Positions 2,779-52,238 of a DNA stretch of 64,000 nt are shown here, one piece after another. This DNA comes from Candidatus Dojkabacteria bacterium (lineage in GTDB: Bacteria > Patescibacteriota > Dojkabacteria > J137): positions 231,772 to 295,771 of the forward strand of contig JBDTVZ010000001.1 of the NCBI GenBank assembly GCA_040006935.1. Direction: 5' to 3'. Under the pieces are notes generated by a model that saw nothing but the letters and a program-made list of their open reading frames with translations, searched no databases and had not been told where the DNA came from. How positions within the stretch are numbered: the first letter of the stretch is position 1; each line of letters begins with the position of its first letter. A program made the translations under genes and the position numbers.

Positions 2779-2830
2779 AATGCCAGAAATTTTTAACAAA
2801 AACCTAAAATCCTTCTAAGATTAGGCTAAT

Positions 2831-2880
2831 TTTGTCAGAAAAAAGTGAGAAAATGTCAAAATTTGTATTGCAATACATTT
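2831..2880 (+). promoter_or_regulatory. Conserved upstream motif copy 1 (TTGTCA ... AAAATGTCAAAATTTGTATTGCAATACATT), putative promoter/operator of the RHS operon
   Basis: A near-identical ~35-nt motif recurs at 14141..14195. It contains the perfect palindrome TGTATTGCAATACA about 53 nt upstream of the 2933 start codon. Confidence 0.35.
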
Positions 2881-2932
2881 TTTTTATTCCTTTTTTAGGT
2901 TAGAATCCATTAGTAAAAATTTATATACTAAA

Positions 2933-4165
2933 TTGAGATTCTGCATGAATACGAGAATAAATTTAAAAAACCTTATGAAATCACGCAAGCGATTTTTAAT
3001 TTTATTGTTAATAATTGCATTTTTTATTGCAGGTATATTATTTTTAGGTCAAAACAATCCGCAGTTTATTACAAATGAGCAAATAAAAGGCCCAGATGCA
3101 CCAGTAAACCAAAGTGTTAGCGCAGAAGATTTAAATTTAAACTTGGATAAGTCAAGAGTTCTAATGTCTCAGGATGGAAATTCCATGCTAATACTTAAGG
3201 AAATTGATGAAAGAACTTCTTCTTTAACTACAACAACATATAGCCTCACGCTAAATAATAGCAAAGGAGAAATACTCAAAGTAATAGAAGAGAATAACAT
3301 TATAAATTCCAATTTTATTGATAATAATTTTATAGCCTATCAAATTATCGGTGACAATGCAGGAATATATAGATATGATATGTTAAACAATACAAAGCTT
3401 TTAATTCAAGAAACTTCTGACACAGAAGCGTTTAAATACTTTGCCTTTCTAAACTCAGATGAATATTTGCGCATTCAACCAAGAACTGGACAGGTTGGTT
3501 TAGTGAAAATATCTATTGGAGCAGATTTCCCATTAGGAGAGAAAGTGATTCCTACATTAGGAAGTTATTCTTCAACAAGTGCTTATTCTTGGCCAGCAGC
3601 ATCACCAGATAGTAAATATATAACTCTTCTGGATTCAGCTGGAGAAAATGGAACAGAATTAATTGTAACCTTTACTGGTAATCAAAATATCAATAAGCAA
3701 TACTTAAACATACCCATTGGCAACTTCCCTAGCCAATTAGCAAGTAATGACGCACCCATAAGCTGGAGTTCGGATAGCAAAATATTAATATTAGGCTATT
3801 TTGGAATTGCAGTAAATCTTGAGGATAAGTCTATTATTTATAATGCTGGTAGTAACACCTTTGGAATGAAATTATCTCCTGATAATACGTTATTATTAGT
3901 AAATAAAACGGAAGCACCTACAATAGAGAGCTTTGATAACAAACAAGCTTATAATTTACCTCCATATATTTCCGATTTCGGTTGGTTAAGTAATAAGTAT
4001 GCAATTTTAGTAATAGGGCAAAACTTATATTTATATAATATTTCTAATAGTGAACTCACAAAAGTTATCGAAGATATTGCAGATTTCCAGATAGTACATA
4101 CTGATGGGAATGGGAATGCTGTTATAAAAAAAGATTCTACTTTATTAAAAGTTACAACAATATAA
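2933..4165 (+). CDS. Signal-anchored secreted protein with PD40/TolB-like beta-propeller repeats
   Basis: N-terminal hydrophobic segment. Repeated SPDSKYITLL / SSDSKILIL / SPDNTLLL blades. The stop lies 1 nt before the RHS gene start, suggesting translational coupling. Confidence 0.4.
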   Translation: MRFCMNTRINLKNLMKSRKRFLILLLIIAFFIAGILFLGQNNPQFITNEQIKGPDAPVNQSVSAEDLNLNLDKSRVLMSQDGNSMLILKEIDERTSSLTTTTYSLTLNNSKGEILKVIEENNIINSNFIDNNFIAYQIIGDNAGIYRYDMLNNTKLLIQETSDTEAFKYFAFLNSDEYLRIQPRTGQVGLVKISIGADFPLGEKVIPTLGSYSSTSAYSWPAASPDSKYITLLDSAGENGTELIVTFTGNQNINKQYLNIPIGNFPSQLASNDAPISWSSDSKILILGYFGIAVNLEDKSIIYNAGSNTFGMKLSPDNTLLLVNKTEAPTIESFDNKQAYNLPPYISDFGWLSNKYAILVIGQNLYLYNISNSELTKVIEDIADFQIVHTDGNGNAVIKKDSTLLKVTTI

Positions 4166-4166: not shown

Positions 4167-7100
4167 ATGCTCAAGAAACTACTTATTGTTACATTTTTAT
4201 TTCTATTCTTAACTTCCACAACTGGGAAAGTTGCTGCATTCTCATTCGATCCATTTGATAAATATGGGAAATTTCTACCTTGGCTAACTAATCCATCGTG
4301 GAGAGATAACCAACAAATGGTAATCACTTCTACCCCAAATGGACATCTTTCCAACTTTGGTTATAGAGCAGTTGATTTTGCAAGAAACGGTGGGGACGCA
4401 GCTACGATAGGTATTCCCGTTTTAGCTATTTCTGATGGAGTTGTGGAGAAAGTTGGTAATGATCCTCAAGGATGGGGGAACTATGTAATACTTGATCATC
4501 AGAATGGGTACAAAACAAGATATGCACATTTAGGCCTAGTAGTATTAAATAGTAGTGATGTGGGACATGCGATTAGAAGAGGGCAGGAAATTGGGGAATT
4601 TGGAAATACTGGACGTGTTACTAGTGCAAATTTGGAATTAGAAATGATGAATTCAGCTAATGGTGCAATTGACCCTATTGCAGATGGGAGAGCTTTCCAA
4701 GGATTTATTTCAAATAGTCAAGTGAGTGTATCTTGGCAAAGCCCAATTACTAGCTTTAACCACGATCACGCCTTTGTTAAATCCACAAATGATGTAAGGC
4801 CAAATGATCCCGGGAATCCTTGGGATCCACCTGTTATAGACCCATTAGACAGATATTTACAAAATTATGGATATTTATTCCCAAGTGGAATGGTTGCAGA
4901 ACCTATCAATACTGCATTAGGATCTTTTTTACATAGAAGCAATGATTTAGAATTTAATAATCCTTCTGGACCAGAATTTAAATTTGAGAGAGTTTCTAAT
5001 TCTCCAGATCAATTTATAGGATTTAATGGTTTAGGTTGGACAAATACATTCAATATTAAAGTTCTTGCGAACCCAGATAATACTTTCTCTGTGAAATTTG
5101 AAGATGGTAGAGGAGAAAGTTTCAAAGAAGTCGATACTGACCCAAACACATACACAAGAGATTTTCAGAAACTAACTGCAGAAAGTTTAGGAACATTAGT
5201 AAGACTTGATGCAAGTAATAATTATAGATTTCAATATACATCGGGAGATAAAACAATATATCTATTCAATTCGGATAAAGGTTCTTTAGCTTGGGGAAAA
5301 ATTGAAAAAATTACTTCAGTTGATGGAAAATCTATTAATTTTATTTACGATTCAAACGGGAATTTACAAAAAGCATCTGATTCATTTGGAAATTGGATGA
5401 CATTATCTTTTGGGCAAGATAAATTACTAGACACTTTAACAGGTTCTGATGGCTCTGTAATAAATTATTCATATAACTTTGATGGTCGATTAACTTCAGT
5501 TACAAAAAATAACGGTGGTGCATGGACTTACGCATATGATAGTCAAGGACGAATTACAACTATCATAGATGCAGAAGGTAAAACAGTTGTTGCAAAAAAT
5601 ACTTACGATAGTGCAGGAAGAGTAATTGAACAAATAGATGGAAATGGTGGAACAACAAAATTAGAATATACCTCCGACGCTTCCAATAATAAGTCTACAA
5701 AAATTACAGATCCATTAGGAAATGTCACAGTTCAGCTTCATAATGCAAATAACTATTTAACTGAAGAAGATAGAGCAGATGGGACTTCGATTAAGAAAGA
5801 ATACAACGCACAAGGTAAAGTAACAAAAGAAACAAATGAGTCAGCAGTCGCAACATTATATGAGTATGATGCTAATGGCAATACTACAAAGGAAACTCAT
5901 GCTGATGGTTATATAAAAGAAACTAAATATAGCTCACAAAATCTTCCAATAGAAATAAAAGATCCATCTGGAATTATTTCGATGGAATACAATAATGCTG
6001 GAAGAAAAACAAAAGTAACTGATCAGTTAGGTTCTGTATCTACTTATCTATATGATGCAAATAATAATTTAATAAAAGAAATTAATAATAATGGTAATGC
6101 AAAAGTATATGCATACAATGCAAATGGACACTTAGTTGAACAAAGTGATTTTTCAACTTCCTCTGATTTGAAATATGAGTATGATGCTCGAGGAAACCAA
6201 ACTAAAGTAACAGATGCTTTGAATAATGTTTCTACTTTTACATATGACGGAAGGAATCATTTAGTAAAGAGTACAGATAGTAGAGGAAGTGTGAAGACTT
6301 ATGCATACGATAGAAATGGCAACCTTGCATCCGAAACGGACGAAGCTGGTGCTGTCAAAACTTATAGAAGTGATAATAATGAAAATATTGTTGAAATTGC
6401 TTATCCAAGCCAGTACTTACAATATCCTACAAAACAAGTTGGAATATTAAATAATAGCAATACTTTAATTGATGAAAAATTTAATACTAACTTATCAAGG
6501 TGGGATGTTTCAAATAGTAATGTGCAAATTATTGGGAAAACTTTATTAACTAAAAATAAAACAACAGACTCTAAAATATATTCAGTGTGGTTAGAACCAA
6601 AGCTTGATCAAGAGTATTGGTTATCTGCTTTGTATAAAACTGCCAATGCTACTGCTCCTCAATTTAATATTGAAATGTATGATGCAAACTTTAATTTTGT
6701 AAGGAATGCAAAACCACTGGGATTAACTTGGAATGGTGGTACTTTTGACGGTTGGGATAACGAATACCGAAATGCATTCTACTTCCCAGAGGATTTGTGG
6801 AAAGGAAGTCAGGTTTCAATTATCAAATATGCTCGTTTAATTATCACTCTACCGGCTGGAAGTAATGGAACTGAAGGTACAACTATTTTGGATGATATTT
6901 ATTTAGGGCATTTGAATAGACCAATTGCAAAAATTATTAATTACAAAGGAGGTTGGTTAGGTGAGAAAATGATTTTAGATGCAACAGGTAGTTGGGATTT
7001 TGAAACTAATATTAAGAAAGCATATTGGACAGAAATAACTGGACCTGAAGTTTCAATTAATGAGGAATCCAACAAACTTATGAGTAGTTTTGTAATTCCA

Positions 7101-10100
7101 GCGCTGGATAAAGATACTGCATTTACTTTCAGATTAATTGTAGAAGATGGGAATGGAGTTAGAAGTATTGCCAGAACAAAAACCCTTGTTATTAAAAAGA
7201 ATACATTACTCCCAACAGAACTTAATAATGTAAGTAATGAAGTTCAGGATGATTTTATTGATCCGAACGACCCAACTTCACAAATTGATACGAGCTCCCC
7301 ACCAATTCTTGTAAATGTTACAGAGCAATTTGAATACGACAAAAATAATAATCGAATAAAGTATAAAGATAAAAATGGAAATATTACTAGGTATACATAC
7401 AACAATCGAAATGAATTAATTAAAACCGATAGTTATGGAGCAGGAGTTTCAATACTAAGCTCACAAATTTTTGCCTATGATAAAGTTGGAAATATTATTA
7501 AGAAAACTGATTTAACTTCTCCTGGAATTAACCAAGATGGAAACATAACTAGATTTATTTACGATTCTTTAAACAGAATTACAGAAACAATAAATCCTGA
7601 TGGAAAATCTCAAAAAATTAAATATGACATTCTTGGAAGAGTTATCGAAAAAACGGATTTAGAAGGAAATGTAACTAAATACGAATACGATGCATTAGGA
7701 AGAAATACTAAAATGATTGATTCTAGCAATGCAGCTACCATATATAGTTACGATAGAGTAGGCAATATGATAAAAAAAATTGATACTCTTGGAAACGCAA
7801 CTATTTATGCATACGATTCTTCAGGAAGAACTAGTGGGGTAAGAAATGCTATAGGAGATGTTGCTAATTATGTTTACGACTCAGTTGGAAATTTAATTGG
7901 TCAGAGAAATTTTGCAGGAGAATTAACAATTTTATCTTACGATGGGAATAATAATCTAATTGGGCAAACAAATACATTAAATTTAAAAACAAATTTTGAA
8001 TACGATTCTCGAAATAATTTAACAAAAATTACAGATCCAAATGGAGATTATACAACCTATAATTACGATGCAATGGGAAATAAAGTTAGAGAAGTAGATG
8101 CTTTAGGACAACAAAAAAATCTGGTGTACGATAATAATGGAAACCTAATTCAATTTACTGGAGAAAATGGCGAAAGTATTAAGACAAGTTATGATGGCCT
8201 TAATAGAAAAATTGCAGAAGTGGATCAGAAAGGGAATACTGTAAAATATCAATACGATTCACTAGGTAATGTTATAAGCCAGACAGATAAAAATGGGAAT
8301 GGGACAAGTTATAAATACGATAAGAATAGAAACGTAATCGAAATTGTAAATGCACTTGGTGATAGTCAACGAATTGAATATAGTCCAAATGGAAACATTT
8401 TAAAGACTATCGATCCGCTAGGGAATGCTACAACATACAAATATAATAATTTAAATGAAAATATTGAAACAATAAATCCAATTGGTGGATCAATTAAATC
8501 TACTTTTGATTCATTAGGTCGATTGACATCAAAAACGGATTTACAAAATAAAGCTACAACATATGCTTACGATTCATTAGGAAATGTAATAAAAATTACA
8601 GATAGAATAGGGAACGAAACTTCAATTGAGTACGACAAAGTTGGGAAAGTTATAAAAGTAACAAAACCAAATGGGGCAATATCTCAAAGTGAATACGACT
8701 CAATTGGAAGACTTGCAAAAGATATTAATGCGGAAAATGGAGTTACAACTTACGGTTACGACAGTGCTTCAAACTTAATCTCTACAACATTGCCAAATAA
8801 TATTACAACTAGCTTTGGATATGATTCATTAAATAGAAAAGTCCATGAAAGTGTTGCAGGAGTTTCTAAGAGTAGTGAGTACGATTCAATTGGAAGACTT
8901 ATTAAAAGTATAGATGCTAATGGGAATCAAACTAGTTATCAATATGATTCCGTAAATAATATTGCAAAAGTTACAAATCCAAGAGGCTTTAGTACTAATT
9001 TTGAATACGACAATAATGGAAATTTAACTAAAGTCACAAATGCAAAGGGCACTGCTACAACTTTTGAATATAATGGATTAAATCTTCAAACAAAAACTAC
9101 ACAAGCAGATGGAACAACTCTATCGCAAGTTTATGATAAAGATGGAAGAGTAGTGAAAAGTATTGATCCAAAAGGAAATTCTATAGGGAATTCTTACGAT
9201 GCTCTTGGAAGAATTGTAAGTAATAAAAATCAGTTAGGAAATTCAACAAGTTATGAATTTGATGCAAATGGTAATGTAGTTAAAAAAACTGACGCGGAAG
9301 GTAACCTTACAAAGTATGCATATGATAGTTTAGATAGATTAGTCAAAGTTACAGATGCTTTAAATCACGATACTAACTATGAATATGATAATGTTGGAAA
9401 TTTAACTAAGGAGATTAATGCCAATAATAAATCGACTATAAGAAATTATAATAAATTGAATCAGTTGAAGGAGGAAACAGATCCTCTTGGAAATAAAGTT
9501 AGTTATAGCTACGATTTAGCGGGAGATTTAGTTTCTAAAGTTAAAGCCGATGGAACTGTAGTAGGTTACTCATATGATGCTTTAAATAGATTAAACACTA
9601 TTGGATTTAGTGATTCTAATCAAAATGTAAATTATGAGTATGACAATGCTGGAAATATTACAAAAATACAAAAAGGTAATAGTGTAGTTTCATTTATTTA
9701 TGATGAGAATTCAAATCTAATTTCTGCAACACAAGATGGAAATTCTACAGTTTCTTATAGTTACGATGAACTTAATAACCAGTCTCAAATTAGGTATCCT
9801 AACCAAACAATTGCTGAATTTGACTATACGGCTTTGAATCAAGTCAAAGATTTGAGCATTAAAAAGAATTCTGCAATTTCTACAACTCAATTTGGTTACG
9901 ATGCCAACGGGAATTTAACTTCTCAGGTTAATCCAAATGGGTCCCAAATTTCTAAAGATTATGATAATACAAATAGATTAACTAAAGTTTCTGATATTTC
10001 AATTACTCACGATAGCGAGGGCGTGACAAACACATCTAATATTGCAGAGTTTAATTATAGTTTAGATAAAAACGGAAATAAGTTGAGCGAAGGATTTAAG

Positions 10101-12500
10101 TTAGGCGATGGAGCTGCTGCATTGGTCGGCACAAAAGATTATAACTACGATAGCTTACAAAGATTAACAAAAGCTACTGTAACTCATAATTCAGTCGGAC
10201 AAAATGTTGTTGATTCAATTGAAGAATTTGGCTATGACAATATTGGAAATAGAGTAAATCTCAAAACAACAAATGTGTCATCTCCAGCGGAGTCGAGGGA
10301 TGCGGAATTAAATTATTCTTACAACGATGCAAATCAATTAATTGAAGATTCTGCTAATAATTACTCTTATGATGCAAATGGAAATAGAATTAGCAAAACA
10401 GGTAAAGATGGTAATAAAAGTATTCAATACTCTTACGATCTTGCAGATAACTTAACGAATGTTCAAAGCAATATTAGCGGAAAAAATTATAATATAAGTT
10501 ATAACTACGATGGGTTAAATCGAAGAGTTGAGAAAAGTATTAATAGTACTAATAGCAATTTCTATAGTGATGTCTCTTATATTAAATATGCTTATCTTGG
10601 AAAATCCTTTGATACTATTTCTCAGGATGTAAATGGAACTATTCAAAACTTTTACAGAGCTGGAATTAGTAATATTGAGCCTACTTTAATTGCGAGTGAT
10701 TTAATAAGTCCAGCGGTTAAAGTAACAGATCCTGTTGTGCAAAATGATGAACCAGAAGTGCCAGCTTCGTTCCCAGTGTCATATCCTGGAGATGAGGTTC
10801 CAAGTTCATATCCAGTTTCTTATCCTGATGATTCAGTCACTCCAGAGCAAACTCCTGTTGAAGATACTTCTGTAAATTTAAGCTATTACTTTAGAGATGG
10901 ATTAGATTCTGTTGTGGGTGTTTCGAATAAGAATTCTACTGTAGATTATTTAAACGAATATTCATCTTATGGAAAAATTAAAGACTCTTCTAAATTAGAT
11001 GTGTTTAATTCAAAAACATATTCTGGACAAGATTATGATGTTGAAAGTGAAATGTCTTATTATGGTTCGAGATATTATGATTCTGAAATTGGGAGTTGGA
11101 ATAAAATGGATAGTTATCAAGGAAATACATCTAATCCAAGTTCGAGAAATAAATATGCATTTGTAGAAAATAATCCAGTGAATAGTGTGGATGTGGATGG
11201 ATTTGCTGGCGAACAGATGACAGGTGATCAAGCAATTACTTATCTAAATGATCAAGTAACACAAACAAATACATTTATTAGCCAAGCAGATAAAGCTGCG
11301 GTAGATGGACAGAATAGAATAAACGATATTAATAATAGTTTAGCTACTTTATCTGCAGACGCTACTTCTAAATACTGGTCAGCACACCATGCATTAGAAG
11401 ATGAGTATACATATGTTTTGATGAATGGAGTTGTTGGAAGATTACAAGCTAGAGGCTACTCGTTGAACTATGGTCAGGTTTACAATTATCTTGGCAATAA
11501 AATTACTGAGAAATCGTATATTTATGCTGCCAAACAACAACAATATTACGCCGCTGCGCAGTTGTATGAATCCTCTGTACAAGAGAGAGATTATTTGCAG
11601 AATGATTATCTACCTCAAATTTCATCTGCTAAGATAGAAGCTTTAAAATATATTGATGATACGAATTCATTAAAAAGTGATGTTCAAAATCAAATAGATC
11701 AGATCAAAGCTGATGCTCAAAATAGAGCAAACGCCGCAGAAACTCAGAGAAATATTTCCCTGTTATTTGCAGGTGCGGGGGCAGTTATAGGTGGAACTAT
11801 TTGTGCAGTAGCGACTGCTGGTATTGCAACAGCTGGATGTGTGGCTGGTGGTATAGCATTAGTAGCTGGCGTAGGGTCTGCTGCAAACTCAGAAATAAAT
11901 AGACAAGATGCTATGTATACTGTGAAGACAGGTACATTCATGGACTCTAAAGCTAATTTCTTTAATAATTTAGGATTTGATAAAACAACTTCAAGTTCAC
12001 TAAGTAATGCAATAAATGTTGGTGGGAATGTAGCATTTGTGGTTTCTGGAGTAGCAGCTGTTGCGACAGGTGTAATAGCAGGTGTGGCTTTATTGGCACC
12101 AGTTATAGCTGGTGTAGGAACTACCACTGCTGCTACTGCCGCCACAGAAGCTACCGCAACTGGTGGAACTATCGCCTTAGGATTAGATGAACTAGGAAGT
12201 AGCTTAGATAAATTTGCAGAAGAAGTACAAGCAATCACTTATAAAGCCTTTGTACCCGCAGAGGCGCTTGCTACCTCTGACTGGAAACCCTATGTCTTGG
12301 AGAAATTAGCGGATGTTTCCACTAAGATCAACTTTAATCTAACAGGTATAAATAGTATTATGAATAGTGTTAGTAGAGCATCAGCAGGAATGGGAGGAGC
12401 TACTGATTGGGAATTATTGCAAATATACAATAACCCACAATTCTGGGATAGAGTAACATTTTTTCAGGATGGAGTGATAGTACCAAACCCTTTTAATTAA
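4167..12500 (+). CDS. RHS/YD-repeat polymorphic toxin with signal peptide, degenerate M23 domain, YD repeats, RHS core and glycine-zipper C-terminal toxin domain
   Basis: 2777 aa with an N-terminal signal peptide. LytM-like block at aa ~55-165. Dozens of YxYDxxGN repeats span aa ~330-2190. RHS-associated core (YYGSRYYDSEIGSW...NKYAFVENNPVNSVDVDGF) ends at aa 2346. A distinct 431-aa C-terminal domain follows. Confidence 0.85.
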   Translation: MLKKLLIVTFLFLFLTSTTGKVAAFSFDPFDKYGKFLPWLTNPSWRDNQQMVITSTPNGHLSNFGYRAVDFARNGGDAATIGIPVLAISDGVVEKVGNDPQGWGNYVILDHQNGYKTRYAHLGLVVLNSSDVGHAIRRGQEIGEFGNTGRVTSANLELEMMNSANGAIDPIADGRAFQGFISNSQVSVSWQSPITSFNHDHAFVKSTNDVRPNDPGNPWDPPVIDPLDRYLQNYGYLFPSGMVAEPINTALGSFLHRSNDLEFNNPSGPEFKFERVSNSPDQFIGFNGLGWTNTFNIKVLANPDNTFSVKFEDGRGESFKEVDTDPNTYTRDFQKLTAESLGTLVRLDASNNYRFQYTSGDKTIYLFNSDKGSLAWGKIEKITSVDGKSINFIYDSNGNLQKASDSFGNWMTLSFGQDKLLDTLTGSDGSVINYSYNFDGRLTSVTKNNGGAWTYAYDSQGRITTIIDAEGKTVVAKNTYDSAGRVIEQIDGNGGTTKLEYTSDASNNKSTKITDPLGNVTVQLHNANNYLTEEDRADGTSIKKEYNAQGKVTKETNESAVATLYEYDANGNTTKETHADGYIKETKYSSQNLPIEIKDPSGIISMEYNNAGRKTKVTDQLGSVSTYLYDANNNLIKEINNNGNAKVYAYNANGHLVEQSDFSTSSDLKYEYDARGNQTKVTDALNNVSTFTYDGRNHLVKSTDSRGSVKTYAYDRNGNLASETDEAGAVKTYRSDNNENIVEIAYPSQYLQYPTKQVGILNNSNTLIDEKFNTNLSRWDVSNSNVQIIGKTLLTKNKTTDSKIYSVWLEPKLDQEYWLSALYKTANATAPQFNIEMYDANFNFVRNAKPLGLTWNGGTFDGWDNEYRNAFYFPEDLWKGSQVSIIKYARLIITLPAGSNGTEGTTILDDIYLGHLNRPIAKIINYKGGWLGEKMILDATGSWDFETNIKKAYWTEITGPEVSINEESNKLMSSFVIPALDKDTAFTFRLIVEDGNGVRSIARTKTLVIKKNTLLPTELNNVSNEVQDDFIDPNDPTSQIDTSSPPILVNVTEQFEYDKNNNRIKYKDKNGNITRYTYNNRNELIKTDSYGAGVSILSSQIFAYDKVGNIIKKTDLTSPGINQDGNITRFIYDSLNRITETINPDGKSQKIKYDILGRVIEKTDLEGNVTKYEYDALGRNTKMIDSSNAATIYSYDRVGNMIKKIDTLGNATIYAYDSSGRTSGVRNAIGDVANYVYDSVGNLIGQRNFAGELTILSYDGNNNLIGQTNTLNLKTNFEYDSRNNLTKITDPNGDYTTYNYDAMGNKVREVDALGQQKNLVYDNNGNLIQFTGENGESIKTSYDGLNRKIAEVDQKGNTVKYQYDSLGNVISQTDKNGNGTSYKYDKNRNVIEIVNALGDSQRIEYSPNGNILKTIDPLGNATTYKYNNLNENIETINPIGGSIKSTFDSLGRLTSKTDLQNKATTYAYDSLGNVIKITDRIGNETSIEYDKVGKVIKVTKPNGAISQSEYDSIGRLAKDINAENGVTTYGYDSASNLISTTLPNNITTSFGYDSLNRKVHESVAGVSKSSEYDSIGRLIKSIDANGNQTSYQYDSVNNIAKVTNPRGFSTNFEYDNNGNLTKVTNAKGTATTFEYNGLNLQTKTTQADGTTLSQVYDKDGRVVKSIDPKGNSIGNSYDALGRIVSNKNQLGNSTSYEFDANGNVVKKTDAEGNLTKYAYDSLDRLVKVTDALNHDTNYEYDNVGNLTKEINANNKSTIRNYNKLNQLKEETDPLGNKVSYSYDLAGDLVSKVKADGTVVGYSYDALNRLNTIGFSDSNQNVNYEYDNAGNITKIQKGNSVVSFIYDENSNLISATQDGNSTVSYSYDELNNQSQIRYPNQTIAEFDYTALNQVKDLSIKKNSAISTTQFGYDANGNLTSQVNPNGSQISKDYDNTNRLTKVSDISITHDSEGVTNTSNIAEFNYSLDKNGNKLSEGFKLGDGAAALVGTKDYNYDSLQRLTKATVTHNSVGQNVVDSIEEFGYDNIGNRVNLKTTNVSSPAESRDAELNYSYNDANQLIEDSANNYSYDANGNRISKTGKDGNKSIQYSYDLADNLTNVQSNISGKNYNISYNYDGLNRRVEKSINSTNSNFYSDVSYIKYAYLGKSFDTISQDVNGTIQNFYRAGISNIEPTLIASDLISPAVKVTDPVVQNDEPEVPASFPVSYPGDEVPSSYPVSYPDDSVTPEQTPVEDTSVNLSYYFRDGLDSVVGVSNKNSTVDYLNEYSSYGKIKDSSKLDVFNSKTYSGQDYDVESEMSYYGSRYYDSEIGSWNKMDSYQGNTSNPSSRNKYAFVENNPVNSVDVDGFAGEQMTGDQAITYLNDQVTQTNTFISQADKAAVDGQNRINDINNSLATLSADATSKYWSAHHALEDEYTYVLMNGVVGRLQARGYSLNYGQVYNYLGNKITEKSYIYAAKQQQYYAAAQLYESSVQERDYLQNDYLPQISSAKIEALKYIDDTNSLKSDVQNQIDQIKADAQNRANAAETQRNISLLFAGAGAVIGGTICAVATAGIATAGCVAGGIALVAGVGSAANSEINRQDAMYTVKTGTFMDSKANFFNNLGFDKTTSSSLSNAINVGGNVAFVVSGVAAVATGVIAGVALLAPVIAGVGTTTAATAATEATATGGTIALGLDELGSSLDKFAEEVQAITYKAFVPAEALATSDWKPYVLEKLADVSTKINFNLTGINSIMNSVSRASAGMGGATDWELLQIYNNPQFWDRVTFFQDGVIVPNPFN
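4329..4661 (+). other. Degenerate (probably non-catalytic) LytM/M23 peptidase-like domain within the RHS protein
   Basis: YRAVDF sits where HxxxD is expected. NLELEM sits where HxH is expected. The central YAHL and the glycine-rich core are retained. Confidence 0.5.
6921..7200 (+). other. Ig/PKD-like domain inserted within the YD-repeat region
   Basis: The stretch IAKIINYKGGWLGEKMILDATGSWDFE...TAFTFRLIVEDGNGVRS is non-YD and beta-sandwich-like. Confidence 0.35.
11205..12497 (+). other. C-terminal toxin domain of the RHS protein with two Gly/Ala-rich glycine-zipper hydrophobic segments (putative pore-former)
   Basis: It lies directly after the DVDGF end of the RHS core. Hydrophobic segments: AGAGAVIGGTICAVATAGIATAGCVAGGIALVAGVG and VAFVVSGVAAVATGVIAGVALLAPVIAGVG. 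Confidence 0.5.
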
Positions 12501-12517: not shown

Positions 12518-12910
12518 ATGATTATAAAGAGAAAATTTAGCTTAGTAGGATGGAGTCCAACTTTCGGGAGGATTTTATACAGAAGTCCTGGCGATCATAA
12601 AGACACTATTAATCTGGATATTGTATTTATTGACACAAAATATATAAATGCACCTACGCAGTTTGAACTTGAATCCATCAAAGAGGTGACACAATTAGAT
12701 GAAGGTATGAATTTTTTATCAAATAATAAGATAGCGGCTCTGGAACAAGACTTAAAGGTTTTTGAGCTTTCCACTAAGACTCAAAAATTCTATATTGTTG
12801 CCTCATTTATCTCAATGTTTGAAAATAAATTGGAGCTTCTGGAACTACCTTTTGAGAAAGATAAGACATCTATAAAGTCTTACAAGCCAATAGACACTAA
12901 AGGTTTATGA
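12518..12910 (+). CDS. Hypothetical protein, candidate immunity protein for the RHS C-terminal toxin
   Basis: 130 aa, beginning 18 nt after the RHS stop on the same strand. Position is the only evidence. Confidence 0.3.
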   Translation: MIIKRKFSLVGWSPTFGRILYRSPGDHKDTINLDIVFIDTKYINAPTQFELESIKEVTQLDEGMNFLSNNKIAALEQDLKVFELSTKTQKFYIVASFISMFENKLELLELPFEKDKTSIKSYKPIDTKGL

Positions 12911-13048: not shown

Positions 13049-13669
13049 ATGTTTCTAATTTCAAATTCAGTTACAAAAATAATTTCAATCGTAAGTTCAG
13101 AACCTACGATTCAAATGCCTGTCAGGTTTAGTATTAAATACATAGATAATACTAATTATAATAAACTTCTAATATTCTATATTGAATTTGATGGTAAGTA
13201 CTTAGAATTAGAGTTTAATTATAAAGAAGGTGATTCTCAAGGAATTCTAATTAGTTGTGAGTTGATTAATTATCATGAAAAGTTTCAAATAATTGATGGG
13301 ATTTACACTCTTAGTGAAGATATTTCAAAGGATATACCACTTTTCGATTTAAATAACGGATTTCAAATTGAACCCACAAAAAACCCTTATATAGTAAAGA
13401 AAAGTACTCACGATTTCGGATTAATAAAATACGAGAATGCTATCCAAATTAATTTTTCAACTTCTAAATCTAATAAAAAATTTACTATTGGAGAGAAGAT
13501 CCTCATAGGTTTAGATACAGATAATAATTTAAATGAAATTGTTATACTGAATTTATCCGATATCGAAGAAGATTTAATCAATCTCAAGTTAAGTGATCAA
13601 GAGAATAAAAAGTATGACCTATCTTCTGAAACTTTGAAGTATTTAAAAGAAACAAGGAATTTATCTTAA
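13049..13669 (+). CDS. Hypothetical protein, possible second or orphan immunity protein
   Basis: 206-aa soluble, acidic protein downstream in the same orientation. Confidence 0.25.
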   Translation: MFLISNSVTKIISIVSSEPTIQMPVRFSIKYIDNTNYNKLLIFYIEFDGKYLELEFNYKEGDSQGILISCELINYHEKFQIIDGIYTLSEDISKDIPLFDLNNGFQIEPTKNPYIVKKSTHDFGLIKYENAIQINFSTSKSNKKFTIGEKILIGLDTDNNLNEIVILNLSDIEEDLINLKLSDQENKKYDLSSETLKYLKETRNLS

Positions 13670-13691: not shown

Positions 13692-14111
13692 ATGTTACTA
13701 AGAAGATTAATTGCACGATATATTGATAACTTTTCAATATTAATAGCTTCCTTTTTACTGGGTTTTGGAGGATTTTTAATTGCTGGGATTATTACACAAT
13801 CTAATAAGATAGCTACTTTAATATTTTTTTGTATTTTTGTAATAGCATTTATTATTGTATACGTTATAGATTTTATTGTTCTACCTAAAAAGACAGGTAG
13901 TACTGTTGGGAAGAGAGTATTAAGATTAAAAATCATCAATGATAATGGTAGTGATTTAAAATATTCACAATTAATTATAAGAGAGATTATTGTACAAGCG
14001 GTTGGTTTTTTTGGAATATTTGGTGTAATTCTTCTACTGATGAGTTATTCAGGACCTCAACATAAGTTATTTTATGACAGTACATTAGATATGAATGTTG
14101 TTAAAAGATAA
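13692..14111 (+). CDS. RDD-family-like small membrane protein
   Basis: Two hydrophobic helices flank TGSTVGKRVLRLKIIND...REIIVQ, which resembles the RDD family. Confidence 0.35.
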   Translation: MLLRRLIARYIDNFSILIASFLLGFGGFLIAGIITQSNKIATLIFFCIFVIAFIIVYVIDFIVLPKKTGSTVGKRVLRLKIINDNGSDLKYSQLIIREIIVQAVGFFGIFGVILLLMSYSGPQHKLFYDSTLDMNVVKR

Positions 14112-14140: not shown

Positions 14141-14195
14141 TATAAGTAAATTTTGTCATTCTCTCGTAGAAAATGTCAAAATCTGTATTGCGGTA
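14141..14195 (+). promoter_or_regulatory. Conserved upstream motif copy 2 (TTGTCA ... AAAATGTCAAAATCTGTATTGCGGTACAAT)
   Basis: About 31 of 35 nt identical to 2846..2880, about 60 nt upstream of the 14254 start. Confidence 0.35.
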
Positions 14196-14253
14196 CAATG
14201 TTTTATTATTCATAGCAAGTTATAATATACCAATTATATATTACAAGTAACAA

Positions 14254-14784
14254 ATGAGTGAAGTTAAAGCAATAAAGCAAGGAAATAATGATGACTTGAA
14301 GAAGAGAAAAAATGTAAATAACGTAGCCTATTTGTTTGTTCTTTACGGATTTTTAGGATTTTTTGAGAATCTTCTTTTGGTAGGTCCAACAGCTCACAAA
14401 CCAGAAGTCCTTGTAACATTCATTATCGGATTTATACTTCTTGCTATACCTTACATTATACTTCCCCTAAAGGCGAAACAAACTTTAGATGTTAATTATG
14501 CAAAAGCATTGAAATTTTATTTATTACTAGTCATGGTAATCCCCACAATTGTATTATTTGTTGTATTTCTAATAACACATAACCTTGTAAGTATCCCTTT
14601 TTCTATCTTTGATTTATTGTTTTTTGGACTTTCATTTCAATTCGAAAATAATATTAAGGAGTTTAATCCAAAATTTAAATATTCCTTTAAACAATTTTTG
14701 AAAGTATTTGTTCCATCTGCTCTTTTATTATGTGCTGGATTTACACTGACTTTTATTTCAGGAATACTTAACGCAGTCAAATAG
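14254..14784 (+). CDS. Polytopic membrane protein (4-5 TM), hypothetical
   Basis: Hydrophobicity pattern. It shares the upstream motif with the RHS operon. Confidence 0.4.
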   Translation: MSEVKAIKQGNNDDLKKRKNVNNVAYLFVLYGFLGFFENLLLVGPTAHKPEVLVTFIIGFILLAIPYIILPLKAKQTLDVNYAKALKFYLLLVMVIPTIVLFVVFLITHNLVSIPFSIFDLLFFGLSFQFENNIKEFNPKFKYSFKQFLKVFVPSALLLCAGFTLTFISGILNAVK

Positions 14785-17599: not shown

Positions 17600-19045
17600 A
17601 TGGATAAGCAAGAAGTTATTGTCAGATTTGACAAAGTTACTTTTAAATACAACGATAAAAAGACAACTCTGGACGAAGCAGATTTCTCTGTACGTAAAGA
17701 CGCTAAAATAACAATAATGGGACAAAATGGTGCTGGAAAGAGTACTATTTTTAAATTATTGATCGGAGAATTAAAACCAACTTCAGGGAAAATCAATATA
17801 AAAGACGGATCTAAGATCGGAATTGCTCAGCAAATGATTGCAAAAGAATCCTTAGATTTGACAATCTTGCAGTATTTTGAATCGGCATTTGAAGAAAAAG
17901 TTTATGGAATTGAAAAGAAAATAAAGGATGTTTTAAGGACTGTAAATTTAGAAGTTCCGCTGGAAAAACAAGTGAAAGATTTATCTGGAGGACAAAAAGC
18001 GAGATTGCTTTTAGCTTTTGCATTAATACAAGATCCAGATATTTTATTACTCGACGAGCCTACAAATAATTTAGACCAGGTTGGAATCGAACACCTTACA
18101 GGATTCCTAATGTTTTACCCAAAGACCGTAATTGTAATTTCTCACGATGCAGATTTTTTAAATATGTTTACAGACGGGGTTCTAAACTTAGATACACATA
18201 CTCATAAAGTAGAGCAATTTGTAGGAAATTACTACGACGTTATTGCCCAAATAGAGGCACAGAGGGAAAGAGAAAGATTATTAAATGCTCGAATTGAAAA
18301 AAGTGTTAAAGATAGATTTGAAAAAGTTAATAAGTTGGGAGGAAAAAGTGTTGCTATGCGAAAACTTGCAAATAAAGTTAGAGAAGATATTGAAACTGAT
18401 CGTGAAAATATTGTAGAAGTTAGAAAAGAAGACAAAACTATTCCTGAATTTACAATTCCTGCACAACATACAATTACTTCTGTTATTCATATTACTTCAG
18501 TAAAATTTTTGAAAGAACATCAGATTCATGAAAGTAAGGTAGATCTAAAGCTATTTCGTGGAGACAGATTGATAATTAAAGGTCCAAATGGAATAGGGAA
18601 GAGTACTTTAATAAAGTCTTTGTTAAATCAAGAAGGGGCAAAAATTAGTGAAGATGTGCGAGTAGGTTACTACAGCCAAGATTTCTCTGAATTAGATATG
18701 AATGATACTGCTCTCAACTCTCTCAAAAGTGTAATGCAGGAAGTAGATATACCTAAGCTATATGCTACCGCAGGAAGATTTATGCTCACTGGAGAGCTTT
18801 TAAACAATAAAGTAGAATCTCTTAGTGAAGGACAGAAGGGATTACTTTGCTATGCAAGATTTATGTTACAAGAACCAGGACTATTAATAATGGATGAGCC
18901 TACAAATCATATAAATTTTAGACATATTCCAGTTATTGCAAAAGCTTTGGATGAGTATAAAGGTGTTTTAATTCTTGTGAGCCACTTACCAGATTTCGTG
19001 TCACAAATTAAGATTAAAGACGAATTAGATCTTCAAAGGCTGTAA
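17600..19045 (+). CDS. ABC-F family ATPase (two tandem ABC domains, no TMD)
   Basis: Walker A GQNGAGKST and GPNGIGKST. Signature LSGGQKARL and LSEGQKGLL. Walker B LLLDEPTN and MDEPTN. Confidence 0.85.
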   Translation: MDKQEVIVRFDKVTFKYNDKKTTLDEADFSVRKDAKITIMGQNGAGKSTIFKLLIGELKPTSGKINIKDGSKIGIAQQMIAKESLDLTILQYFESAFEEKVYGIEKKIKDVLRTVNLEVPLEKQVKDLSGGQKARLLLAFALIQDPDILLLDEPTNNLDQVGIEHLTGFLMFYPKTVIVISHDADFLNMFTDGVLNLDTHTHKVEQFVGNYYDVIAQIEAQRERERLLNARIEKSVKDRFEKVNKLGGKSVAMRKLANKVREDIETDRENIVEVRKEDKTIPEFTIPAQHTITSVIHITSVKFLKEHQIHESKVDLKLFRGDRLIIKGPNGIGKSTLIKSLLNQEGAKISEDVRVGYYSQDFSELDMNDTALNSLKSVMQEVDIPKLYATAGRFMLTGELLNNKVESLSEGQKGLLCYARFMLQEPGLLIMDEPTNHINFRHIPVIAKALDEYKGVLILVSHLPDFVSQIKIKDELDLQRL

Positions 19046-23758: not shown

Positions 23759-24439
23759 TTATTTATTATTTTCAATATTAGTTACTTCTCCGTCTTTAAC
23801 ATGTATTATTCTATCTGCGTATTTTGCAATTTCATCTTCATGGGTAATCAGAACTATAGTTGCGCCCTCTTTATTAATTTCTTGAAATAATTGCATAATT
23901 TCGTTTGATTTCTTACTATCAAGGTTACCAGTTGGCTCATCTGCTAAGATTATACTGGGCTGCATCATTAGAGCCCTAGCAATTGCAACTCTTTGAACTT
24001 GACCACCGGAGAGCTCATTACTTTTATGATTCTTACGATCTTTCAAACCTACCTTTTCTATTAAAAATTCTGCTCTCTGACTTGGATTACTTACTTTTCC
24101 GTAAATTGAGGGAAGAAGCACATTCTCCAAAACTGTTGTTCTTGGTAATAAGTTAAATTGTTGGAAAACAAAGCCAATTTCTTTATTTCTAATCCTTGCA
24201 AGTTCTCTTCCTTTCAATTTACTTACATCCTTGCTGTTTAAAATATAAGTTCCATTTGTTGGAGTATCGAGCAATCCAAGTAAATTCATTAACGTAGACT
24301 TTCCAGAACCTGAGGGCCCCATTATTGCGACAAATTCACCTTTGTCTATAGTTAAATCAATGTTTTTAAGTGCATGTGTAAGCTCACCACCGTTTTTATA
24401 AGTCTTGTGTATGTTTTTTAAATCGATTAAAGCACTCAT
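23759..24439 (-). CDS. ABC transporter ATP-binding protein (MacB/LolD-like)
   Basis: GPSGSGKST Walker A, LSGGQVQRVAIARAL signature, ILADEPTGNLD Walker B. Confidence 0.9.
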   Translation of the reverse strand: MSALIDLKNIHKTYKNGGELTHALKNIDLTIDKGEFVAIMGPSGSGKSTLMNLLGLLDTPTNGTYILNSKDVSKLKGRELARIRNKEIGFVFQQFNLLPRTTVLENVLLPSIYGKVSNPSQRAEFLIEKVGLKDRKNHKSNELSGGQVQRVAIARALMMQPSIILADEPTGNLDSKKSNEIMQLFQEINKEGATIVLITHEDEIAKYADRIIHVKDGEVTNIENNK

Positions 24440-26993: not shown

Positions 26994-29900
26994 TTACTCA
27001 ATCCACCAATCCAACCAAACACTTGCACCTCCACTTAATTCTCGATACTCAACTTTAATGGTGTGAAGACCAGCAGTCATATTTAATGTTGCATCATCTT
27101 CCTCATATCCATGAGGTCCCCAATGATCTATTGCGAGAGTTCCGTCAATCCAGACTCTTACCCCATCATCGCTACCTTCCATAAATGTATATGTGTCTGC
27201 ATCAAAGTAGAATTGTCCCTCATATCGAGCAGAGAAGTTGTTACTACTAATTCCACTGATTGGTGAGTTCGATCCCCAATCATAATCAACATTCGATGTG
27301 TACATAGACATTGTTGGTGTTCCTGTTAATGTTGCATTATTAAAGTATTTTGCACAGAACCTTCCAACGTCCACACAATTTGATGTTTGAGTTTGAGGAA
27401 GTGTCCAAGATAATCCTGCTGTAGCATCTCCTGTTCCATCGTAATATTCCATTTTGATAGCATGAGCTCCTGCTGTTAATGTAACTGTCGAAGAATTCAT
27501 AGTTGTTGTATGCGATGTCCAATTATTTATTTTTTGAACATTATCTACCCATAACCTAACTCCATTATCTGATGTTGTAACGAACGTATAACTTCCAGCA
27601 GTTGGGAAATTAATATTTCCAGTCCATCTTGCAGAGAAATTATTACTATTTACTGATGCATCGGGACTTCCTCCCCACCAGAAATTAGAAATTGTATCTT
27701 CACATCTTGTTAGAACTGGAGAGCCAGTTAAACCTGTATTGTTATAGTATTGCGCAGTAAATGTACAACTCGCATTGACTTTGAATAGAGCAGATTTGCT
27801 TGCTGTTGCTCCGTGTGAATCTGTTGCTATGAATTCTATATTCTGTTGACCAGTCCAGTTTACTGGTGTTGTTATTGTGACAACATTGCTAGCATTGATA
27901 CTTACAGTTAGCGGTCCATTATTTGCATAGCTCCAAGTGATTGGATCTGCAATATCTGGGTCACTTCCATAATTATCTAAATCGAATGTTGTAAAGCTTT
28001 GCCCTAATACGATTGTTTGTCCTGGAATTGTATTTACAACTGGATCATTATTATCAACAGGTTCAAAGTATTGCCATACTGATGCTCCTCCTCCTATTTC
28101 TCTGTACTCACCTTTTACTTGATGAACACCAGCAGATACGTTTATAGTTTTATAATCCTCTTGGTACCCATGTGGACCCCAAGAGTCTATTACTGCTTGA
28201 TTATCTAGCCAAACTCTTACTCCATCATCAGATGCTGTCCCAAATTCATAAGTTTCTCCTGTGAAAGTAAAGTTTCCTCTCCATCTTAACGAAAATGCGT
28301 CATCGTTAGTTATTCCATGTCCAGGACCCCATTGCTGCCAGTCTGCATCCACACCATTTTGTACTGCTACAAATACTGGACTTCCGGATAGAGTAGAATT
28401 ATTGAAATATTCTACACAGTAGAGATCACTTGGAATAGTATTGCAATTCCCTCCGTACTGATACCATACTAAAGCTACGACAGCATCACCCGTCGCTTCG
28501 TAATATTCCACTTTTACACTATGAATTCCTGAAGTCAATGTTATGTCATAATCATTATTTTCCCATGAGTGACTTGTCCAGTTATCAATTCTTAGTGTGT
28601 TATCTACCCAAACCCTAATTCCATTATCTGAGTTTGTATGGAAAGTGTAATTGCCAGCCGCAAAGTTTATATTCCCTTGGTATCTTGCAGAGAAATTATC
28701 TGCATTAACAGATGGATCCGGACTATCACCATCCCACCAGAAGTTTTGAACAAGACTTTCGCACCTTGTAAGAGCTGGGGTTCCAGTTAAGGTTTGATTG
28801 TTAAAGTATTGTGCAGTGAATTGTCCTGCACATGCGTCCACCACATTATTTACTTTGAATAGCGCAGAACTACTTGCAGTAGCAGCGGAACTATCTGTTG
28901 CTGTAAATGTAACCGATTGTTCGCCCACCCAGTTTGCAGGAGTTGCTACTGTAACTATATTGTTTGAATCGATATTTACAGTTAAAGGTCCGTTATTGCT
29001 ATAGCTCCAAGTTATTGAATCTGCAATATCTGGATCTGTGCCATAAGTATCTAAATCAAATGTTGTAAAATTTTGTCCTAGGGTAACTGTCTGGCTTGGG
29101 ATTTGTGTTACTACCGGTGTACTATTTGCAACTGGAACAAAATATTGCTCTATGATTGCATTTCCACCAATTTCTCGGAATTCACCTTTTACTTTGTGAG
29201 TACCAGAATTTACTCTCATAGTCTTAGCAGTTTCCTGATAACCATGAGGTCCCCAGTCATCTATTACTAATTGATTATCTAACCAAATTCTTGCTCCATC
29301 GTCTGAAATTTCATCAAATTTATATGTTCCAGTGTTAAAACTGAAGTTGCCCGTCCACCTTATAGAGAAACTATCATCATTAGTAATTCCATGTCCTGGT
29401 CCCCATTGTCCCCAGTCAGAATCTACCACTCGTTTTGTAGTTACAAATACAGGGCTTCCGGATAAATCAGAGTTATTGAAGAATTCTATACAATATAGAT
29501 TTGTTGGAACTGAATTACAATTTCCTCCATATTGATACCATGTTAAAGATGCTACTGCATCACCTGTTGCTTCGTAATACTCAACTTTTATATTATGAGT
29601 TCCTGCAGATAAAGTGATGTCGTAATCATTGTTTTCCCAAGAGTGACTTGTCCAATTATCAATTCCTAGAGCTCCATCAATCCAAACTCTAATTCCATTG
29701 TCTGAGTTTGTATGGAATGTGTAATTACCAGCAGCAAAGTTTATATTTCCTATCCATCTTGTCGAAAAATTATCTGCATTTACTGTTGCATCAGGACTTG
29801 TTGTTCCCCACCAGAAATTATCGATAACATCTTCACACCTTGTAAGAACCGGTGCATTAGTTAAAGTTTGATTGTTAAAGTATTGTGCAGTGAATTGCCC

Positions 29901-48883: not shown

Positions 48884-49942
48884 TCAAGAATTCTTTTCAA
48901 TTACAATATATTTCCTTAAAGAATTTATTAACTCACTGCTCAAGGAGATATTTCGGGTAAGCATTTTCTTATTTTTATTTGAACCAAAAATTACTTTTAA
49001 CGGGATATCGCCAGGGTTTTCCCTAATTATATCTCTAATTCTCAATATTTCTTCGGCTTCTATAACATTTATTAAATTAATTATGAGTTCTGTAAAGGCA
49101 ATAAAATCATTCGTTTTCTTTTTCAATATTTCCTTTTCCGAAATTCTCCGCTCAAGCCTTTGAATATCTATTTCTGCAGGAAGTTGTTCAGGAAAGATTC
49201 CTTTTTCGTTTAGTAATTTACGAACCGAGAAGTTATTCTCTTTATGTTCTGCTTTGATATTTGGTTTTGTTCTGAGATCTTTAGATAAAGTATTAAAGGT
49301 TGTAATTTCAGTGGCAAGATCCTTTGCTTTTATAGTAATTGTAGGTAAATGGTCAGCTAACGAACCAGTTTTTATATTTAATTTATTCTTTATAACTCTT
49401 GTGGGCATATTAAATAAGGCTTGGTCCCCAACCGATCTAACCTCAGCTATATCACTACTTGTTAGTCCCTTTGAAGACAGCACGCCTGAGAATTTCTTTT
49501 CGGTTTCTTTTAATTTTCTTCTGGCTTTGATTCTCTCTATAATATGGCTCTTTTCTGTTTCCAGTTCTCGTTTTCGTGTTTGAGTGGCAAAATATGATTG
49601 TGCTAGTGCTATGGTTTCCTTTCTTGGATCACCATTTTGAGCTATAAGATAACATGCATATCTCGTTAACTTATAATCTACTGTTGGTCTCATTGCTTCA
49701 TTAGATCTTCCAGCGGCAATCTTAGACATTTTCGTGACCTCACGAAAATGTCCTTCAATTTGTGGATAGATTTTTAACATTGAAGTTTGTGCTTTTTTTA
49801 TGACTTTATGAAAACTTTCCCAAGTCTCGTACCCAAGCGTACTCATCAATTCTCTTGCGTACCAATATTCTTCATCCGCACCGTTTAGATGTTTTATACT
49901 ATCAAAAGTTCCAAATTTTGTGGTATTTATTTTATTTTCCAA
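48884..49942 (-). CDS. dinD: DNA-damage-inducible protein D (DinD) family
   Basis: YWYARELMSTLGYETWESFHKVIKKAQ and LTRYACYLIAQNGDPRKETIALAQSYFATQTRKRE parallel E. coli DinD. Confidence 0.65.
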   Translation of the reverse strand: MENKINTTKFGTFDSIKHLNGADEEYWYARELMSTLGYETWESFHKVIKKAQTSMLKIYPQIEGHFREVTKMSKIAAGRSNEAMRPTVDYKLTRYACYLIAQNGDPRKETIALAQSYFATQTRKRELETEKSHIIERIKARRKLKETEKKFSGVLSSKGLTSSDIAEVRSVGDQALFNMPTRVIKNKLNIKTGSLADHLPTITIKAKDLATEITTFNTLSKDLRTKPNIKAEHKENNFSVRKLLNEKGIFPEQLPAEIDIQRLERRISEKEILKKKTNDFIAFTELIINLINVIEAEEILRIRDIIRENPGDIPLKVIFGSNKNKKMLTRNISLSSELINSLRKYIVIEKNS

Positions 49943-52131: not shown

Positions 52132-52238
52132 TTGATTATTCTATCACTTTTTATATTTAATATGAGCAGCACGAGGTTTTTTAATTTCTTAGAATGTTAT
52201 ATACTTATATTTGTAATTAGTCAAAAATTGATGACATT

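Follow-up and report, generated by a model that had tools for sequence, protein, structure and literature searches.

The 64,000-nucleotide stretch analysed here, called the window below, is part of contig JBDTVZ010000001.1 of a Candidatus Dojkabacteria bacterium and carries an operon built around the gene for an RHS toxin. We describe a palindromic element that occurs twice in this window. The first copy (site 1) lies between a Ldh_2 dehydrogenase gene on its 5' side and, on its 3' side, a string of plus-strand genes that begins with a gene here named X. The second (site 2) lies after an RDD-family gene and before a gene that starts at 14254. The genes that follow the two copies are these:

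2945 to 4165, plus strand: gene X, first of the operon; 406 amino acids (aa) from ATG 2945, with an N-terminal hydrophobic segment and no Pfam match
4167 to 12500, plus strand: the RHS toxin gene (rhs); 2777 aa, with an N-terminal Peptidase_M23 domain, DUF6531 and RHS repeats
12518 to 12910, plus strand: an open reading frame (ORF) of 130 aa directly after rhs, the usual position of an immunity gene
13049 to 13669, plus strand: an ORF of 206 aa with a weak DUF2283 match
13692 to 14111, plus strand: an RDD-family membrane protein of 139 aa, a downstream ORF of the operon
14254 to 14784, plus strand: ABI721_01120, a predicted multi-pass membrane protein of 176 aa and the second target of the putative operator

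The 396-aa product given by NCBI for gene X corresponds to the ATG at 2975.

A first-pass annotation of the window, made by a model from the letters alone, had described a motif shared by the two sites, and the motif is real. An exact 28-nt core, AAAATGTCAAAATYTGTATTGCRRTACA, has exactly two matches in the 64 kb, at 2850-2877 and 14170-14197, both on the plus strand, and each is preceded on its 5' side by box 1, AATTTTGTCA, which contains TTGTCA. No third match to the core was found in the window with up to three mismatches allowed, and since 100 shuffles of the sequence gave none at all, no copies are expected by chance. Site 2, which had been placed at 14141-14195, runs from about 14149 to 14199. 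The perfect palindrome reported within the first copy is also present (TGTATTGCAATACA, 2864-2877), its equivalent at site 2 being TGTATTGCGGTACA. The similarity is wider than was first noted and extends in both copies to a -10 hexamer 23 nt 3' of the palindrome. The elements, with P1 denoting the promoter at each site, are arranged as follows:

2828 to 2837, plus strand: box 1 of site 1, AATTTTGTCA, holding the -35-like hexamer TTGTCA
2848 to 2862, plus strand: box 2 of site 1, AGAAAATGTCAAAAT; its terminal 6 nt, CAAAAT, are the flank that adjoins the palindrome in other organisms
2863 to 2878, unstranded: putative operator of site 1, TTGTATTGCAATACAT, including the 14-bp perfect palindrome at 2864-2877
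2878 to 2883, plus strand: -35 position of P1 at site 1 as read from the sequence, TTTTTT, a poor hexamer
2901 to 2906, plus strand: -10 hexamer of P1 at site 1, TAGAAT, with GT before it, exactly 23 nt past the palindrome
14149 to 14158, plus strand: box 1 of site 2, AATTTTGTCA
14168 to 14182, plus strand: box 2 of site 2, AGAAAATGTCAAAAT
14183 to 14198, unstranded: putative operator of site 2, CTGTATTGCGGTACAA, an imperfect palindrome
14198 to 14203, plus strand: -35 position of P1 at site 2, ATGTTT
14221 to 14226, plus strand: -10 hexamer of P1 at site 2, a perfect TATAAT with GT before it, 23 nt past the palindrome

The conserved part can be written as a 16-bp palindrome, TTGTAT-N4-ATACAA. 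Box 1 repeats TGTCAAAATT of box 2 imperfectly in inverted orientation. Site 2 alone has a further symmetry: from box 1 through the spacer to box 2 (14151-14182) it reads as a near-perfect palindrome whose arms, ATTTTGTCATTCTCT and AGAAAATGTCAAAAT, are 15 nt long and separated by cgt. The inner part of this palindrome is not shared by site 1. A 1.5-kb Logan contig (SRR26386622) is identical to the window.

Outside the conserved blocks the two copies are as dissimilar as random AT-rich DNA. The longest unbroken run of identity between them is 15 nt, and the spacers between box 1 and the core are unlike in both sequence and length (10 nt at site 1, 9 nt at site 2). Conservation in blocks, with unrelated and unequal spacers between them, argues for selection on the blocks and not for a recent duplication. 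The same observations bear on a different history for the pair, in which the copies would be att-like ends or a duplicated promoter, now without function, left by the insertion of an 11.3-kb RHS segment. As such an insertion would leave them, the copies stand as direct repeats exactly on either side of the RHS operon, at a distance of 11,320 bp (a repeat finder groups them as family D17, 37 nt at 86% identity). Yet no integrase or transposase was found between them, there is no marked change of composition, the identity is confined to blocks of at most 15 nt, and elsewhere single copies stand before orthologous operons and before unrelated genes, with the promoter geometry each time. We therefore consider an insertion origin highly improbable. 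A dispersed repeat or miniature inverted-repeat transposable element is not indicated either: the 64 kb scanned contain two copies, and no contig elsewhere has more than one or two; the dozens of unrelated copies by which the first-pass annotation would have recognized a generic repeat were not seen.

The distance from palindrome to -10 hexamer is exactly 23 nt in both window copies. With a spacer of 17 nt assumed, the -35 hexamer is the six bases directly 3' of the palindrome, so that the palindrome abuts the -35. Its centre is 30.5 bp 5' of the first base of the -10 and would lie at about -42.5 if transcription began 7 nt after the -10, which puts the probable starts near 2913 (site 1) and 14233 (site 2). 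The promoters of this genome are canonical. Ten genes of the window have a perfect TATAAT 21-30 nt 5' of the ATG and, by implication, very short leaders; in several of them a TTGACA is also present 15-18 nt 5' of the -10. The TATAAT of gene 14254 is 27 nt before its ATG, within the usual range; for the TAGAAT of site 1 the distance is longer than usual, 38 nt to ATG 2945 and 68 nt to ATG 2975. Both copies had at first been placed 55-60 nt before a start codon. This holds for gene 14254, where 56 nt separate the end of the core from the ATG, but not for the first gene, where the distance is 67 nt (ATG 2945) or 97 nt (ATG 2975).

Several other promoter and operator types were considered for these sites. 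A Bacteroidetes-type promoter was suggested by the low GC content, the lack of Shine-Dalgarno sequences and the fit of TAATTTTG to TAnnTTTG, and was dropped because the genome belongs to Dojkabacteria and the promoters of the window are canonical TATAAT/TTGACA promoters. The consensus sequences of sigma-54, extracytoplasmic function (ECF) sigma factors, CodY, CcpA (cre), NtcA, GlnR/TnrA, ArgR and Rex were compared informally, by eye, and each was rejected on spacing or half-site mismatches.

The start codons of the window genes are not preceded by Shine-Dalgarno sequences. In 20 of 50 genes they have TTAA at a distance of 12-15 nt on the 5' side, often within ATTTATTAA, and in 11 it stands exactly at -13; examples are the ATGs at 1789 and 13692 and those of the minus-strand genes 23759-24439 and 62203-62583. 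The X gene of a related locus (L025, below) likewise has TTAA at -13. This tetranucleotide may be a non-standard translation-initiation signal of the lineage.

A second promoter can be read further upstream in the same DNA. In this arrangement the TTGTCA of box 1 would be the -35, followed by an 18-19-nt spacer and an extended -10, TGTCAAAAT, and transcription would start inside the palindrome (at about 2869 and 14189). The palindrome may then be a repressor operator at +1, like the SOS boxes in colicin promoters, or the arrangement may be a tandem second promoter. At site 2 a consensus scan does return TTGTCA-18-CAAAAT, its -10 preceded by TG, and within the window TTGTCA-N15-21-CAAAAT is found at these two sites only, with 0.22 occurrences expected. 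The resulting leaders of 65-105 nt would, however, be atypical of a genome in which the -10 is usually 21-30 nt before the ATG. Further evidence on both sides came from related operons in other organisms.

The eight best homologues of the RHS protein share its M23+DUF6531+RHS architecture, and wherever upstream DNA is present a gene for a protein of ~384-507 aa without a Pfam match lies directly 5' of rhs. A large word-based protein search with the 406-aa X protein had returned only the protein itself; it could be placed in a family because local BLASTP was run against the neighbours of the RHS homologues. These partners are homologous to one another and to the window protein (25-39% identity, E down to 1e-100), and the window X protein matches seven of them at 27-30% identity with E of 1e-35 to 1e-44. 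The homologous partners and the shared rhs architecture together indicate orthologous two-gene operons. The members of the X family are:

Window, 2945 to 4165
L025, 4706 to 6004
L027, 4449 to 5972
L028, 184 to 1338
L030, 4720 to 5997
L031, 4527 to 5981
L034, 4643 to 5977
L036, 4429 to 5670

In two other uncultured bacteria the palindrome is present 5' of the X gene, in L025 as CCAAAATTTGTATTGCAATACAATGTTT...AAGTTACAAT and in L027 as CTAAAATTTGTATAGTAATACAATGCAA...TTGTTATAAA, and the distance from palindrome to -10 (TACAAT and TATAAA, respectively) is again 23 nt. L027 keeps both half-sites and differs in the central 4 nt, as would be expected of a site for a protein dimer. L025 contains a second exact copy of the palindrome at 18108-18123. 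Read on the minus strand, this copy is CAAAATTTGTATTGCAATACATTGTTT, followed by TAAATT 23 nt past the palindrome, and behind it lies a minus-strand operon for a 325-aa protein (weak PD40 match), a CHAP-domain hydrolase and a 210-aa protein. The same copy is also 90 nt 5' of a divergent gene for a regulator with a helix-turn-helix (HTH) domain of the HTH_3 (XRE) type and a GAF domain, after which comes a tandem paralogue. The five sites now available read TTGTAT-TGCA-ATACAT, CTGTAT-TGCG-GTACAA, TTGTAT-TGCA-ATACAA, ATGTAT-TGCA-ATACAA and TTGTAT-AGTA-ATACAA. All were found without searching for the flank, which is CAAAAT in four of them and TAAAAT in one.

Neither box 1 nor any other TTGTCA/TGTCA box is conserved in L025 or L027, and the element conserved across organisms consists of the palindrome, the AAAAT flank and the downstream -35/-10 pair. 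Of the motif as first described, it is the palindrome that recurs elsewhere; the TTGTCA/TGTCA boxes are seen only in this genome, where they may be a second site or a second promoter. L034 (4440-4530, TTGACAAAAATATGTCAAAAAC) and L036 (4330-4360, AATTGTCAATTTT) have TTGACA/TGTCAA-type boxes 5' of X and no palindrome, and these boxes, which resemble those of the window, may be plain -35 elements or another site. Transcription from the upstream promoter would be in keeping with such TTGTCA/TTGACA boxes in L034 and L036 and with the TAAAAT flank of L027, a 5/6 match to the -10 consensus. Against it, no -35-like hexamer is found 16-19 nt 5' of CAAAAT in either L025 copy (L025a, L025b), in L027 or in L041, a further stretch with the operator, and it is the downstream -35/-10 that is conserved. 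We regard the upstream promoter as an unlikely explanation of the shared element.

These data led us to read the two window copies as one module, in which a 16-bp palindromic operator is built into a sigma-70-type promoter and, bound by a dimeric factor, controls both targets; we put the probability of this reading at roughly three in four. Five observations argue for an operator: the site has dyad symmetry; its half-sites are conserved and its centre varies; it precedes orthologous operons in organisms whose proteins have diverged to ~28-41% identity; the -35 and -10 that it precedes agree with the promoters usual in this genome; and its second copy in L025 has a minus-strand operon on one side and a divergent gene for a regulator on the other. 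The suggestion of the first-pass annotation that a common operator or promoter co-regulates the RHS operon and gene 14254 is accordingly strengthened by the palindrome at a fixed 23 nt before orthologous operons in two organisms and before other promoters.

We also asked how the element would behave as RNA. Two hairpins in a 5' leader, one formed by box 1 with box 2 and one by the palindrome followed by a U-run, could in principle attenuate or terminate transcription or affect transcript stability. Pairing is possible between the two boxes (AAUUUUG/CAAAAUU), nine consecutive T follow the palindrome at site 1, and the minus-strand fold at site 2 has z = -5.6. On the plus strand, however, each copy folds differently and neither fold is significant (z = -1.0 and -2.0), the hairpin of the palindrome is worth only -1.6 to -2.1 kcal/mol, stem bases never covary, and box 1 is missing in other organisms. 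Moreover, the element in L025 is flanked by a minus-strand operon and a divergent plus-strand regulator gene, and a well-placed -35 and -10 follow the element instead of preceding it. The window yielded no terminator-like sites, and a search with Rfam 15 gave only two tRNAs in the window at gathering score and nothing credible around either site at E up to 10. An RNA element is thus very improbable here.

The 20-mer AAAATTTGTATTGCAATACA, searched for in metagenomes, matched 16 stretches, mostly in intergenic DNA, one of them on both strands at the same spot. The genes 3' of these copies include those of secreted or membrane proteins without a Pfam match and of one PEP-CTERM protein. In stretch L049 the 20-mer is 5' of a homologue of the XRE-GAF protein of L025 (44-55% identity, tblastn), with TATAAT 22 nt past the palindrome. 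When all 20 non-redundant instances are pooled, nine have a match of at least 5/6 to TATAAT at exactly +23, against a background of 2.4% per position (binomial p ~3e-10). The first three bases past the palindrome are ATG or TTG in 10/20, and position -7 of the flank is C in 11/20. At the -35 position stand TTTTTT (site 1), ATGTTT (site 2 and L025a), TTGTTT (L025b), ATGCAA (L027) and TTGACA (L041); most of these hexamers have TG in common, and that of site 1 is without it. In L041 a perfect TTGACA-17-TATATT adjoins the operator. Hexamers resembling a -10 seemed to peak again at +39, but no longer did so once the criterion was made stricter.

A scan of a genome collection with ATGTCAAAATNTGTATTGC, which is anchored on the window-specific ATGTC, gave 23 matches, all attributable to chance (no TACA, no box 1), and neither metagenomes nor viral contigs gave a match to a strict 24-nt pattern. 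A pattern with a free centre matched viral contigs 62 times, never with TGCA at the centre and mostly in conserved phage sequences; these matches serve as a negative control.

The proposed operator raises the question of how a bound factor would act. We suppose that a dimeric transcription factor binds the palindrome against the -35 of a sigma-70-type promoter, that it may touch RNA polymerase there as lambda cI does at OR2/PRM, and that it would control the X / M23-RHS operon (from 2945) and gene 14254 together. Stereospecific activation, as at class II promoters, demands a fixed distance between operator and promoter, whereas the operators of repressors usually vary in position. The fixed distance across genes and organisms and the very poor -35 of site 1 accordingly tip the balance, if by a little, towards an activator of the class II type. 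As to the identity of the factor, the regulator genes beside the second L025 copy and the L049 copy point to an HTH_3 (XRE) protein with a ligand-sensing GAF domain that would also control its own gene, an assignment we make tentatively and at somewhat less than even odds.

Several observations weigh against this picture or parts of it. The palindrome is absent from the orthologous loci L030, L031, L034 and L036, so that this control is not universal for the operon. The -42.5 numbering hangs on a -10 and a start that are themselves inferred, and 15 of the 20 pooled instances were found via the 20-mer search, which leaves their flanks as the only independent evidence. The link to the XRE-GAF protein is one of adjacency, at only two of about twenty loci (L025 and L049). 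A tblastn search with the L025 protein found no homologue in the 64-kb window, and Pfam scans of essentially all window ORFs of at least 100 aa found no HTH regulator. Finally, site 2, with its perfect TATAAT, a G at -14 and a passable -35 (ATGTTT), perhaps needs no activator, and on the regulator-gene side the L025 operator is 8 nt 5' of a TAGAAT, a repressing position.

The last two points fit a repressor, which at or over the -35 would keep RNA polymerase off until a signal arrived and so hold the toxin operon silent. Colicin and pyocin genes are silenced in this way by LexA-type or phage-type repressors, XRE regulators near toxin or defence genes are mostly repressors, and the perfect TTGACA-17-TATATT adjoining the operator of L041 speaks for the same. 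Repression would, on the other hand, need no such constraint as the 23-nt distance kept in 9/20 instances, and site 1, with TTTTTT at the -35 and TAGAAT at the -10, would be a very weak promoter unaided. We take repression as a serious alternative that is nevertheless less likely than activation.

Beyond its HTH, the L025 XRE-GAF protein has no solved or characterised relative. Searches of viral contigs with the protein or its alignment returned generic phage XRE proteins only, none with the operator. Two-component genes were also seen near some of the loci: a HisKA_7TM kinase directly 5' of the L025 operator (L025 2389-4611), an OmpR-type regulator with a kinase after the RHS locus of L031 (16115-17972), and in L042 (1754-2428) a response-regulator-like ORF, judged so by eye, 398 nt 3' of an operator copy. 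A link between these genes and the regulon is possible.

Comparison with known operator systems provides a closest analogue in lambda cI. At OR2, cI activates PRM as an HTH_3/XRE-type dimer next to the -35, centred near -42. The element described here is likewise a palindromic operator of ~16-17 bp right 5' of the -35, with its centre ~42 bp from the probable start, and the candidate factor likewise has a Cro/C1-type HTH (Pfam HTH_3) and an operator at its own gene. Unlike the lambda system, it has another operator sequence, no phage context and no tandem OR1-OR2-OR3 sites; the candidate carries a GAF sensor domain in place of the cI C-terminal domain, and activation is here only proposed. Class II promoters dependent on CRP or FNR have the site centred at -41.5. 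They resemble the present promoters in the dyad site against the -35, the fixed distance to the -10 and a -35 hexamer that is often weak, and given the inferred start the element here has its centre at the class II position (-41.5/-42, at a fixed distance). The 5-4-5 geometry of TGTAT-N4-ATACA also resembles the FNR site TTGAT-N4-ATCAA, but the half-sites read from the sequence, TGTAT/ATACA, are neither those of CRP (TGTGA-N6-TCACA) nor those of FNR, and no gene of the Crp/Fnr family was seen adjoining any copy.

The PlcR box of the Bacillus cereus group, TATGNAN4TNCATA, is the site of an activator that joins an XRE-type HTH to a ligand-binding domain, in PlcR a peptide-binding TPR domain, and PlcR boxes stand at variable distances from the -10. 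Common to both systems are a 16-bp palindrome of 6-4-6 geometry, an XRE HTH with a sensor domain in the (candidate) factor and, on the reading proposed here, a regulon of secreted toxins and degradative enzymes and regulation of the factor's own gene; the L025 XRE-GAF protein also shows a weak sequence match to PlcR at the level of the HTH. The half-site sequence, the GAF in place of a TPR domain and the unrelated organisms set them apart.

Two further families have operators of similar spacing. PadR-type operators have the form ATGT-N8-ACAT, and the TGT-N8-ACA core and spacing are found in all copies here, but the flanking bases differ (TTGT...ACAA) and no PadR gene adjoins any copy. LexA SOS boxes follow the consensus CTGT-N8-ACAG (PMC8565304). 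As a palindromic operator on a toxin operon the present element resembles them, and site 2 (CTGT-N8-ACAA) is a 7/8 match. It differs in that site 1, L025 and L027 have TTGT-N8-ACAA/T, so that only site 2 has CTGT and none has ACAG, and in that SOS boxes of colicin genes lie downstream of the -10 whereas the palindrome lies upstream of the -35. No LexA or DNA-repair genes are among the targets.

The predicted membrane protein at 14254 had been put forward as a candidate immunity protein for the RHS toxin, and this we could not support. A large protein search with its 176 aa gave only the self-match, and it has no similarity to any gene of the related RHS loci; those loci carry Imm11, Imm26 (weak match), SMI1_KNR4 (weak match) or Barstar genes directly after rhs. 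In the window the 130-aa ORF occupies this canonical position. The 206-aa ORF has a comparable ORF after the rhs gene of L030, with a faint DUF2283 match. The C-terminal ~440 aa of the RHS protein (about 11150-12500, past the NPVNSVDVDGF motif) matched no Pfam toxin domain and contain long Gly/Ala-rich hydrophobic stretches, a composition that suggests a membrane-inserting toxin. Given this C terminus, a membrane-acting toxin with a membrane protein for immunity is possible.

The palindrome thus marks a small, previously undescribed gene-control circuit. Our literature search found the exact core string in no paper, and searches on regulators of Patescibacteria and on RHS promoters found nothing describing the motif or the regulation of RHS operons in that group, where transcriptional control is apparently little known. 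A palindromic operator by a -35 is an ordinary kind of element. What makes this one interesting is the group of organisms that has it, its unusually strict conservation, with 20 bp identical to the letter across diverged lineages, and the toxins and hydrolases in the apparent regulon. What the analysis yields is a testable operator with a fixed promoter geometry, a candidate family of sensor-regulators and a set of targets dominated by a polymorphic toxin operon and cell-wall hydrolases, which probably play a part when these bacteria interact with other cells; regulon members in related genomes can be predicted from the motif straight away. More speculatively, and in our judgement less likely than not, the palindrome could be the operator of an uncharacterised family of XRE-HTH + GAF sensors that, like cI at PRM, bind as a dimer centred at about -42 in contact with sigma and switch on an 'attack' regulon in bacteria of the candidate-phyla-radiation type. 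Such a regulon would comprise the M23-RHS toxins with their partner, CHAP hydrolases and secreted or membrane proteins, under a 20-bp operator identical across lineages. If this were true, it would be among the first transcription-factor regulons for these uncultured bacteria and would give a handle on the timing of attacks on host or competitor cells.

Elsewhere in the window, a 7-nt unit, ATAGTTA on the plus strand (TAACTAT on the other), forms 9.1 tandem repeats at 58815-58878, flanked by an msrA-like gene (58276-58809, minus strand) and a tRNA gene (58979-59052). A single ORF of 3659 aa occupies 26994-37973 on the minus strand, with 300-nt intergenic regions on either side. Between 47633 and 52131 lies a cluster of ORFs without Pfam match together with a BRO-N domain protein (48884-49942, minus strand), which could be a phage-derived patch. 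A 1-kb gap in the greedy ORF selection at 51228-52238 is largely covered by an overlapping ORF (51103-52131, minus strand) with a weak Glyco_hydro_53 match.

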